Positions 61,741 to 63,732 of a stretch of 64,000 nucleotides of DNA are shown here, piece by piece. Made by a program: the position numbers and the translations under genes. How positions within the stretch are numbered: position 1 is the stretch's first letter; every line of letters begins with the position of its first letter. The DNA is from an uncultured bacterium (lineage in GTDB: Bacteria > Zixibacteria > MSB-5A5 > GN15 > FEB-12): NCBI GenBank assembly GCA_965372795.1, contig CBDVDR010000012.1:42446-106445 (forward strand), written 5' to 3'. The notes beneath the pieces are model-generated. The model searched no databases. It was not told where the DNA came from and worked only from the letters and a program-made list of their open reading frames with translations.

Positions 61741-63732
61741 TTAAGAACCTGACTCAAGGTTCTTATATTTCTGAATCATCTCATCCATGATCCGAATATA
61801 TTCTTCGTTATTATGAATCCCGTAAGATTTATCCTTTTTGATTTTCTTAAAGGATTTTAAATCCTTATTAAAATTGTTGGATTGAAGTTTGTTCAATGGA
61901 AGCTCTTTAGCAAGCTCAATAACGATTTCCAACTCATCAATTTTATCTTTAACTTCTGCCTGCCAATTATCACCAATGTCGACATATTCGCTTTCATGGC
62001 AGTTTTCACAAGATTGCATATGAGGACGCACTATTTTTTCGTCTTCCGAAGTGTGGCATTCTTCACAGCTAATTTCAGCTTCAGCCATCACGCTTGTTTC
62101 AAAAACAAAGCCATTAAACTTGCCGCCATTATATGCTTTAGCCTGAAGTTCATGACATCTGTTACAGTCGCCGGCTGTTGCTTTTTGATGGTGACAACTC
62201 TGACAATCTTTTACGAATTTAAAGGTTTGACCGTGCCTTCTCTGGTGAGTATGACAATCGGCACATTCTTTACCGGCTTTCAAATGAAGACCGTGTTCAA
62301 AGCTCCTATTGGGAAGTTCAACAGTAATATTATCAATAGTAGCATGACAGTTTTTACAGTCACTCGGCACCATCTGTTTTTGTGAGAATAAAGTAGTCGG
62401 ATCGACAAATATTTCCAGCTTTTTACCGGCTTTACTAAGATCATCAAAAGATGAGAATAACAGTTCGTTAGAATAGACAATATTATGAACCGGTTTTCCA
62501 TAGCGAACTATATCAAGATTTGTTCTGGCATTTTTAATCAGTGGAATTACTTCACTAAAGTTAGATTTACTGGACTTATCATAACTGTTTTCAACTTTGT
62601 TCATTAGTTTGCTGAGATACTGAACTTTATTCTTAATTGTTTTATTCCACTGAACTAAAAGGCGATCATACCCTTTACCATGACATGGTTCACAGGAATT
62701 TTCACCGGCAATAAAGGTCGTTCCGCCATTAGGCATAGTTTCGGTAGCATGTTGCACATGACATCCCTGGCAGGACATCGAAATATTATACATCGGATTA
62801 GGATGATTTTTGACACCAATACCACCCTCGCCACTAAATAATTTTAACTGATTTTGATGCATTCCCTGATGACAGCCACCACAATGTTCGGCAGCATTTT
62901 CAGGAGTTGTCCATTTATGCTCCATCGGGCTATGACATTGTTCACACTCAATTTTATTTTCTGTAATATGTTTGCGGTGCATTAGCTCAGAATCATTAAA
63001 CTTACTTAACCGGTCTTGATCCCAGTGACAGAAATAGCATCCTTTATCATTTACAGCACCGTCACCTACAAGCATATTTCCGTGACAGCGACGACAGTCG
63101 AGTGAATCAGCTAAAATCTTGGTATGATCATATCCCTGTTCTGTAATACTTTTCGGTTCAACCGAAGGATCATGGCATAGGCGACAATCATCAGTATCCA
63201 TTTCGCCTTCATGTTTTTCTGTTTCTTTGAAGTGACACAATACGCATGTAGAAGCGGTTACAGTCATGTGTTCACCCTGTACAATCTGAGAGTGACAGGA
63301 GGTACAACGAAGTTTTCTTCCTCGTCTTAGTTCTGACAAATGGGGACCATGATCAAACTTTACATTGCCAAACATGACTTCACCTTGAAGAAGTCGAGTA
63401 TCGTGGCATCCTTCTCTTAAGCAGGAAGCATCATCAATTTCAGCCCAGGGTTTACTTTTACGATAGGCGTTTGTAGCATATTTTACCAGCTGATTGATAT
63501 CATGGATTTTACCCATGATCATATTTTCATATCCGGGAGTGTAATGGCATAAATCGCACGAAACATCTTTGTGGCTGGATTCTTTCCAGGCATCGTAATA
63601 AGGTTCCATATAATGGCATGACCGACAGAAATCCGGTCGATTTGTGAATTCTATCATTCCAACGGTTCCACCAACAATAAGAAGGATGAAACCCCCGAAG
63701 TAGATTAGAATTTTTTTAACTTTTTTATGCAT
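61741..63732 (-). CDS. Large membrane-anchored multiheme c-type cytochrome (about 17 CxxCH plus one CX4CH) with a NapC/NirT/NrfH-type N-terminal module
   Basis: 663 aa. N-terminal TM helix, then …[36 protein letters not shown]… (NapC/NrfH-like). Further motifs: CTSCH, CVLCH, CRLCH, CRRCH, CYFCH, CEQCH, CGGCH, CQGCH, CEPCH, CKNCH, CADCH, CQSCH, CNRCH, CEECH, CENCH, and an atypical CLREGCH. Confidence 0.85.
   Translation of the reverse strand: [663 protein letters not shown]

Follow-up and report, generated by a model that had tools for sequence, protein, structure and literature searches.

The inner-membrane entry points described for extracellular electron transfer (EET) are few, and all of them come from models among the Proteobacteria and Desulfuromonadia. 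Zhong & Shi (2018) named CymA, CbcL/MtoC/MtrH and ImcH, with CymA homologues in Proteobacteria only and CbcL homologues carrying between 3 and 23 heme motifs (PMC6295460). CbcBA has since been linked to a respiratory pathway (10.1101/2025.04.14.648717), and a cytochrome survey of the Desulfuromonadia lists the same inner-membrane classes together with Cbc and Act proteins (PMC11492766). At the cell surface, OcwA is a characterised terminal reductase of EET in a Gram-positive electroactive bacterium, with a fold like that of the multiheme enzymes of the nitrogen and sulfur cycles (PMC7911101). Here we describe a membrane-anchored cytochrome with 18 heme sites from an uncultured bacterium of the Zixibacteria (GTDB lineage MSB-5A5; GN15; FEB-12), encoded in a 64,000-nucleotide stretch of DNA, hereafter the window (assembly GCA_965372795.1, contig CBDVDR010000012.1, positions 42,446 to 106,445). 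Judged by homology, the protein is an NrfH-type head with hemes 1 to 4, heme 3 being on a CX4CH site, followed by a linker with three hemes and by two OcwA-type modules in tandem. What is new here is that known parts occur in an undescribed, widespread and modular combination. We consider it probable, with confidence a little above even, that the protein is an inner-membrane menaquinol:cytochrome c oxidoreductase whose built-in heme wire feeds an outer-membrane conduit. The gene and its parts, in window coordinates, are:

61741-63732, minus strand: gene of the 18-heme-site membrane-anchored cytochrome, 663 residues, stop codon at 61741-61743
63649-63711, minus strand: single N-terminal transmembrane anchor, residues 8-28, from hydrophobicity, the positive-inside rule and model helix 2-30
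63268-63732, minus strand: NrfH/NapC-type head, residues 1-155, heme sites 1-4 (C36, C59, C104 as CX4CH, C143)
63607-63627, minus strand: C36-R-S-C-H-Y-M42, the CxxCHxM of the NrfH quinol-site heme 1, from the ungapped alignment to NrfH C43xxCH47xM49
63403-63423, minus strand: C104-LREG-C109-H110, invariant CX4CH heme site between the second and fourth head motifs, retained in short and long variants
63067-63267, minus strand: linker, residues 156-222, heme sites 5-7 (C163, C183, C213), from motif positions and conservation
62398-63066, minus strand: repeat module R1, residues 223-445, five heme sites (C232, C263, C284, C321, C347) and a three-helix bundle with GKxVH416N
61744-62397, minus strand: repeat module R2, residues 446-663, six heme sites (C459, C490, C510, C523, C556, C575) and a three-helix bundle with GxH640N

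The initial annotation of this DNA had counted about 17 hemes and had assigned an atypical CX4CH site (CLREGCH) to the C-terminal domain. The protein has 17 CxxCH motifs, and the CX4CH brings the motif total to 18; this site exists but lies in the head, at the place expected for heme 3 of NrfH, so that the count becomes four head sites plus 14 others. The motifs use all 36 cysteines of the protein; when its residues were shuffled 5000 times, CxxCH arose 0.12 times per shuffle on average and at most twice. Conservation is just as strict: 30 homologues, 38-65% identical, keep every one of the 18 motifs unchanged, SCLxxxCH included, and likewise 16 non-motif histidines, M42, M314 and K75, and across 103 sequences at about 40% identity the motifs are either invariant or at least 90% conserved. 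The sole hydrophobic helix (about residues 8-28) is preceded by MHKKVKK with its four lysines, and the predicted N-in topology with a single N-terminal helix would place every heme site in the periplasm. Motifs in cytoplasmic or membrane-embedded regions would have spoken against a cytochrome of this kind; all 18 fall outside the membrane helix. An AlphaFold2 model built on the 103-sequence alignment has a mean predicted local distance difference test (pLDDT) of 80.6 and a predicted template modelling score of 0.62, and its first helix spans residues 2-30.

The head resembles NrfH both in family models and residue by residue. It was initially annotated as a NapC/NrfH-like quinol-dehydrogenase N-terminus, to be given up if it failed to align in a hidden Markov model search, and this assignment holds: Pfam NapC/NirT (PF03264) aligns to residues 9-128 with 33.7 bits against a cut-off of 24.1, and the same match is precomputed for most homologues. 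The only solved protein matched by sequence is NrfH of D. vulgaris (2j7a_C), which carries quinol dehydrogenase as its PDB molecule name, with E=1.8e-6 for the single sequence and E=1.2e-11 for the head profile; a structural match to NrfH and the NapC/NirT/CymA family was found as well. The profile alignment to NrfH is ungapped and pairs C36RSCHYM42 with C43TSCHIM49, H54 with H61 and C59xxCH63 with C66xxCH70. When the offset is carried past the end of the alignment at residue 72, the invariant K75 falls on NrfH K82. This lysine (CymA K91) lines the quinol site, a role that was reportedly also addressed in a study by Zargar and Saltikov in 2009, to go by its title. M42 is invariant in the 103 sequences, and 225 of 233 family heads have a methionine after CxxCHx.

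Beyond the head, a many-heme extension of heme-wire size had been annotated. The extension is confirmed, but it is not anonymous: it contains two copies of an OcwA-type module. Each module opens with a run of five or six heme sites, after which comes a three-helix bundle with a conserved G-x-(V)-H-N at its end, the helices of the R1 bundle spanning residues 355-438 in the AlphaFold2 model. R1 is a homologue of R2 (residues 223-437 against 451-661, hhalign probability 99.85%, E=9.5e-31, 199 columns). The R1 profile matches OcwA of Thermincola potens (6i5b_A, residues 277-498) with E=7.7e-18, and this match takes in the PxxxMY and GVHN motifs and the helical bundle while being limited to the C-terminal half of OcwA. 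Matches of the same profile to NrfA, MccA and ActA are weak, with E around 1e-3 (about 3e-3 for NrfA and MccA).

Likeness to OcwA and NrfA raises the idea that the protein is itself a terminal reductase, with an open heme in one of the modules that reduces a soluble periplasmic oxyanion or a chelated metal. We consider this very improbable, as the OcwA match covers the C-terminal half only and the NrfA and MccA matches are the weak ones just given. A motif scan of the 663 residues found no CxxCK and no real CX15CH, the sole long-spaced match being two overlapping CxxCH. The conserved non-motif ligand candidates (16 histidines, M314 and M549) are enough for hemes 2-18 to be six-coordinate; with this number of ligands and no CxxCK, nothing indicates a catalytic heme. 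The conserved ligand count and the absence of a special motif argue for pure electron transfer over catalysis. A catalytic multiheme enzyme of the NrfA, ONR or MccA type was rejected on the same grounds, as there is no CxxCK, no CX15CH and no missing distal ligand.

The partners of such an electron carrier may be encoded next to it. The window lies on a 337-kb metagenome scaffold, of which 10 kb on each side of the 18-heme gene were examined, and the neighbour search that had been suggested in the initial annotation found a porin-cytochrome set directly upstream. Three genes, divergent from the 18-heme gene, start about 218 nt past the window end. The first encodes a protein of 308 residues with 10 CxxCH that aligns to positions 4-256 of the 258 in the MtrA/DmsE model TIGR03508 (143.5 bits, short of the 192.2 set as cut-off) and also to the GSU2203 decaheme family. 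The second encodes a protein of 522 residues with no Pfam match; AlphaFold2 models it as a signal helix followed by 26 beta-strands (pLDDT 85.9), and its best PDB match is MtrB (6r2q_B, E=6.3e-15, TMq 0.76), the runner-up reaching E=2e-8 and TM 0.51. The third encodes a 354-residue lipoprotein with the lipobox LLVVYAGC and six CxxCH, which matches the MtrC/MtrF domain PF22113 with 35 bits against a cut-off of 30. The trio reads as a porin-cytochrome conduit, with the lipoprotein predicted to sit at the cell surface. The same locus encodes the outer-membrane proteins BamA and OmpH besides the barrel. Two further genes follow the surface cytochrome on the same strand, for a 487-residue TPR-repeat lipoprotein-like protein and a secreted protein of 204-211 residues (positions 3693-5794 of locus L001), and these may belong to the conduit operon.

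Based on this architecture and how strictly it is conserved, on homology to NrfH and OcwA and on the neighbouring genes, we propose the following hypothetical route that would link the quinone pool with an extracellular acceptor, and in which (i) the NrfH-type head, held at the periplasmic face of the membrane by one helix, would oxidise menaquinol at a high-spin heme 1 with Met42 as ligand and Lys75 nearby; (ii) electrons would then pass along hemes 2-7; (iii) they would continue through the two tandem OcwA-type modules with their five and six hemes, the three-helix bundle of each supplying a histidine ligand; (iv) the likely acceptor here would be the MtrA/DmsE-like decaheme inside the MtrB-like 26-strand barrel, and after it the surface lipoprotein cytochrome. 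Heme I of NrfH is Met-ligated and high-spin (10.1101/2025.04.14.648717). For the 18-heme protein we infer from homology and context that it oxidises quinol, how its hemes are ligated, that heme 1 is high-spin, which way electrons flow and which proteins are its partners. The conduit also favours the respiratory island for an insoluble or unknown acceptor that had been suggested for this DNA; the extracellular acceptor itself is our reading of the locus, and the family may act as an electron hub elsewhere.

On the other side of the gene lies a convergent module, which in the proposed route would be a second, linked quinone-reactive entry point. The flanking features are:

58910-59653, plus strand: membrane-anchored octaheme cytochrome, 247 residues, first gene of the convergent module
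59653-60423, plus strand: NrfC-type four-cluster Fe-S protein with the twin-arginine signal RRDFLK
60425-61651, plus strand: NrfD-type integral membrane quinone-interacting subunit, from Pfam and NCBIfam matches
61679-61710, no strand assigned: bidirectional intrinsic terminator hairpin, 14-bp stem flanked by an A-run and a T-run, shared with nrfD, which is convergent
63733-64000, minus strand: AT-rich divergent promoter region, 23.9% GC against 38% for the gene

The octaheme, nrfC and nrfD genes (58910-61651, plus strand) agree with the convergent NrfCD-cytochrome operon of the initial annotation, as does the shared terminator: the hairpin lies between the stop of nrfD (61651) and that of the 18-heme gene (61741), and its A-run and T-run make it bidirectional. 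An open reading frame (ORF) for 61 residues at 61605-61790 on the plus strand, annotated as a gene in the source contig, covers the hairpin and runs into the 3' ends of both nrfD and the 18-heme gene; it is most likely a spurious call. The AT-rich promoter region upstream, likewise annotated at the outset, holds a good sigma-70-like site, TTGACA-16-TGnTATGTT at 63803-63776, and a GAGG ribosome-binding site 8 nt before the ATG of the 18-heme gene, and it runs about 218 nt beyond the window end, up to the MtrA-like gene. An Rfam scan of the whole window returned nothing.

This second module figures in the main rival to the menaquinol dehydrogenase reading, namely that the 18-heme protein is a membrane-tethered relay only. 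Quinol would then be oxidised by octaheme-NrfC-NrfD, by a Rieske/cytochrome b complex or by a CbcL-like protein, and the head would be an anchor or docking site, perhaps a fourth subunit of NrfCD. A related scaffold from the same study (L082) is consistent with such a tie. It shares bamA, ompH, lpxD, ssb, nadE, a TP_methylase-family gene, PAP2 and lgt, and there (8657-9052, compared with 58729-64000 of the window) lgt is followed directly by the decaheme-barrel-cytochrome trio; octaheme, nrfC, nrfD and the 18-heme gene are all absent together. From this joint absence, the four behave as one cassette beside the conduit, and they look like a single inserted or deleted unit.

Gene neighbourhoods in other genomes bear on the same question. 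ORFs were called and clustered at 81 loci, and the 18-heme family gene was recovered in 78 of them, the base of the counts below. The octaheme-NrfC-NrfD module is present in 14-20 loci and stands directly downstream on the same strand in nine, from several phyla. Rieske protein and cytochrome b with a 9-heme anchored cytochrome are encoded in 31 loci, nearly always adjacent, and within four genes of the family gene in 30. CbcL/MtoC-like proteins, with 11, 17 or 19 hemes and a C-terminal b561/FdnI-type membrane domain, occur in 36 loci (examples are L002 12021-16815, L056 7497-9986 and L074 15749-20453) and lie within four genes in 30. Many of the islands have three or four distinct quinone-reactive modules side by side. 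Against the relay, the CxxCHxM and K75 signature is invariant at about 40% identity, which is more than a mere anchor would need, and in 11 loci the DNA fetched has no second quinone-reactive module. Two long ones among these, L055 and L064, have a complete porin-cytochrome set, the order being octaheme, MtrA-like, barrel, MtrC-like and family gene, and nothing else quinone-reactive in 20 kb. In known Nrf systems, moreover, NrfH-type and NrfCD-type modules are alternative quinol dehydrogenases. Taken together, we judge the relay or subunit role rather unlikely.

Several observations weigh against the menaquinol dehydrogenase reading itself. In 67 of the 78 loci there is a further quinone-reactive module, which may be a CbcL-like b561 fusion, cytochrome b or NrfD, so that the head need not be the entry point. 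The NrfH equivalog model TIGR03153 scores 42.7 bits against a cut-off of 134.2, with 131 of its 138 positions aligned. An equivalent of NrfH Asp89 was not located in the profile alignment, which stops at residue 72; the same offset puts L82 at the D89 position, with the invariant E98 and D101 nearby. The weakest part of the AlphaFold2 model, residues 135-155, surrounds head heme 4. The conduit trio occurs without an 18-heme gene nearby in three related contigs, the otherwise-syntenic L082 among them. An obligate link of the 18-heme gene to the barrel family was considered separately and rejected, as these three contigs have the trio without the gene within 10 kb.

The direction of electron flow is a further question, as the sequence does not fix it. 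The protein could work in reverse, as a quinone reductase that feeds the quinone pool with electrons drawn from a partner cell, a cathode or Fe(II) outside the cell. Organisms with CymA and CbcL/MtoC homologues include both Fe(III) reducers and Fe(II) oxidisers, and MtrAB-like conduits serve both directions (PMC6295460); CymA, MtoC and ImoA-type proteins have been proposed as quinone reductases in iron oxidisers. At this locus, however, the window has two heme-rich ORFs only, with no Cyc2 or MtoD-like monoheme cytochrome and no carbon-fixation context, and the head belongs to the NrfH type, of which the member characterised so far (2j7a_C) is a quinol dehydrogenase. We therefore regard reverse operation as doubtful and give it a low probability.

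Other neighbourhoods point towards soluble partners. Rieske/cytochrome b, CbcL-like and HAO-like neighbours in other genomes suggest that the role of the family may be that of a general periplasmic electron hub, a partner of soluble reductases such as HAO-family octahemes or nitrate and nitrite enzymes, outside any extracellular pathway. HAO-family octahemes are encoded in 12 loci, within four genes of the family gene in 11, and stand three genes upstream in Aminicenantes-type loci (PF13447, 102.9 bits); c554-like tetrahemes occur in 39. At L065 (10001-15826), a locus labelled Caldithrix abyssi, the family gene lies beside genes for a Rieske protein, cytochrome b, a 429-residue anchored cytochrome with 9 CxxCH and a c554-like tetraheme. 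As far as the passages of the C. abyssi genome account go, this arrangement of Rieske/cytochrome b and 9-heme protein matches the nap/eHao region of a nitrate ammonifier, where Rieske/cytochrome b stands next to the 'eHao' octaheme; the same passages say that C. abyssi lacks NapC and make no mention of an 18-heme gene (PMC5317091). A NapC/NirT-headed 18-heme gene thus seems to have been overlooked in those parts of the account. If the 429-residue protein is 'eHao', it is one with no match to the HAO-family Pfam model PF13447. The Zixibacteria locus itself argues against the hub. Searches by tblastn and a heme-motif scan found no HAO, NrfA, Nap, Rieske/cytochrome b or CcsBA in the window; the 10 kb upstream of the 18-heme gene likewise hold no NrfA, HAO or Nap gene. 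The immediate neighbours of the 18-heme gene are MtrAB-like, and OcwA, an EET reductase, is the closest match of its repeat modules. We hold a hub role here to be improbable.

Cytochrome maturation genes recur next to the family as well. ResB and CcsA are both encoded in 24 of the 78 loci. In 22, CcsA is the gene immediately before the family gene and shares its strand. No ResB/CcsA pair is present in the window. The loci with this System II pair include L016, L025, L030, L031, L035, L037, L041, L042, L045, L047, L049, L052 and L074 and others, the pair lying at about 9-10 kb in each, before the family gene. Wolinella has specialised CcsA/NrfI heme lyases. As an invariant CX4CH site is found in every family member, the ResB/CcsB and CcsA pair could by analogy be a dedicated heme lyase for the family. 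At four loci of Kryptonia/Bacteroidota type (L019, L032, L043 and L058), a cytochrome of about 650-670 residues with 17-18 CxxCH is encoded directly upstream on the same strand and may be a tandem paralogue.

The family is large. More than 2,200 proteins of a collection clustered at 90% match at E<=1e-3, 365 clusters of a 50%-identity library match at E<=1e-30, and relatives turn up in at least 556 GTDB species representatives; the top 120 matches are all of about 660 residues and 38-65% identical. The named sources of these top matches are Latescibacteria, Zixibacteria, KSB1, Calditrichota, Ignavibacteria, Acidobacteriota/Aminicenantes, Gemmatimonadota and Marinimicrobia/Fidelibacterota. Existing labels read only 'cytochrome c3 family protein' or 'nitrate/TMAO reductase-like tetraheme subunit'. 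The statement in the initial annotation that the architecture is not a standard named family agrees with the NCBIfam search, in which all matches of the 18-heme protein are sub-threshold and no curated family-specific model appears; an exact-sequence cluster look-up for the protein gave no names. We found no description of the architecture in the literature searched, to which subscription-only papers did not belong, and this absence is no proof.

The modules vary in number. Short forms of about 450 residues combine the head with one module, and forms of about 900 residues have three. Among 233 members with a recognisable head, one to four HN-bundle motifs were counted per protein (none detected in 10), and the number of heme sites has its mode at 18 (126 proteins) and a second peak at 12. 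A few members of 1,300-1,440 residues (P0171 with 1441, P0203 with 1321, and P0224) have an N-terminal polytopic membrane domain of about 870 residues ahead of the NrfH-type head, with many predicted helices and no Pfam match. The family gene is nearly always inside an island of multiheme cytochromes: 76 of the 78 loci have at least one other cytochrome with four or more hemes within 10 kb (median 3). An outer-membrane barrel family is present in 31 loci and an MtrA-like decaheme in 15. We tentatively advance, as a possibility of well under even probability, that this is a phylum-spanning, hitherto unrecognised family of inner-membrane EET quinol oxidoreductases whose periplasmic reach is set by one to four tandem OcwA-type modules and which dock directly on MtrA-like decahemes with no need of soluble periplasmic carriers, a counterpart of CymA, ImcH and CbcL in the uncultivated FCB-group, Acidobacteriota and related lineages.

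The family is found mostly in uncultivated phyla of sediments and the subsurface (Zixibacteria, Aminicenantes, Latescibacterota, Marinimicrobia, Ignavibacteria, Calditrichota, Gemmatimonadota). If it supplies the quinol dehydrogenase of these islands, it would provide a marker and a testable mechanism for a respiration of metals, minerals and electrodes that is now guessed from heme counts. It would also mean that an OcwA module, known from a Gram-positive bacterium, and an NrfH head, known from ammonifiers, have been recombined into a modular wire.

Compared with known systems, the convergent module is built like Cbc4 (CbcSTU) of Geobacter, NrfBCD and Qrc, with an anchored multiheme cytochrome, a four-cluster Fe-S protein and an NrfD-like subunit (10.1101/2025.04.14.648717), but its cytochrome is an octaheme rather than a tetra- or pentaheme, and it misses every NCBIfam equivalog cut-off. 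CbcL/MtoC/MtrH and ImcH are, like the 18-heme protein, multiheme inner-membrane proteins proposed to join the quinone pool to periplasmic cytochromes, and CbcL-like proteins are frequent neighbours of the family. In contrast to CbcL/MtoC/MtrH, which join a c-type heme domain to a HydC/FdnI-type b-cytochrome membrane domain, the 18-heme protein has one helix, no b-type domain and no match to PF01292, and its quinone site would be an NrfH-type c heme. In a comparison by NCBIfam names, none of its matches is called ImcH, which in G. sulfurreducens has 7 hemes and several membrane helices.

The nonaheme OcwA (6i5b) has the homologous multiheme module, helical bundle included. OcwA, however, lacks a quinol head and belongs to a Gram-positive bacterium, where it is soluble or located at the surface, whereas the module described here is tandem-duplicated, membrane-tethered and predicted to be periplasmic. 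With NrfH (2j7a/2vr0), NapC, NirT and CymA the protein shares one N-terminal helix, the CxxCHxM motif, a lysine at the place of NrfH K82 and a head of about 150 residues that holds four heme sites. It differs from NrfH in its length (663 residues against about 140-190), in the CX4CH at the third site, in having no NrfA partner and in the 14 extra hemes covalently fused to the head. CymA-MtrCAB of Shewanella and other porin-cytochrome pathways are a further comparison. The inner-membrane component there has four hemes where that of this locus has 18, and here the decaheme falls under the curated family cut-off, the surface cytochrome has six CxxCH rather than 10, and the barrel counts 522 residues against about 650-700 for MtrB. 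Common to both is that the gene of a NapC/NrfH-type inner-membrane cytochrome stands beside those of a decaheme, a 26-strand barrel and a lipoprotein cytochrome.

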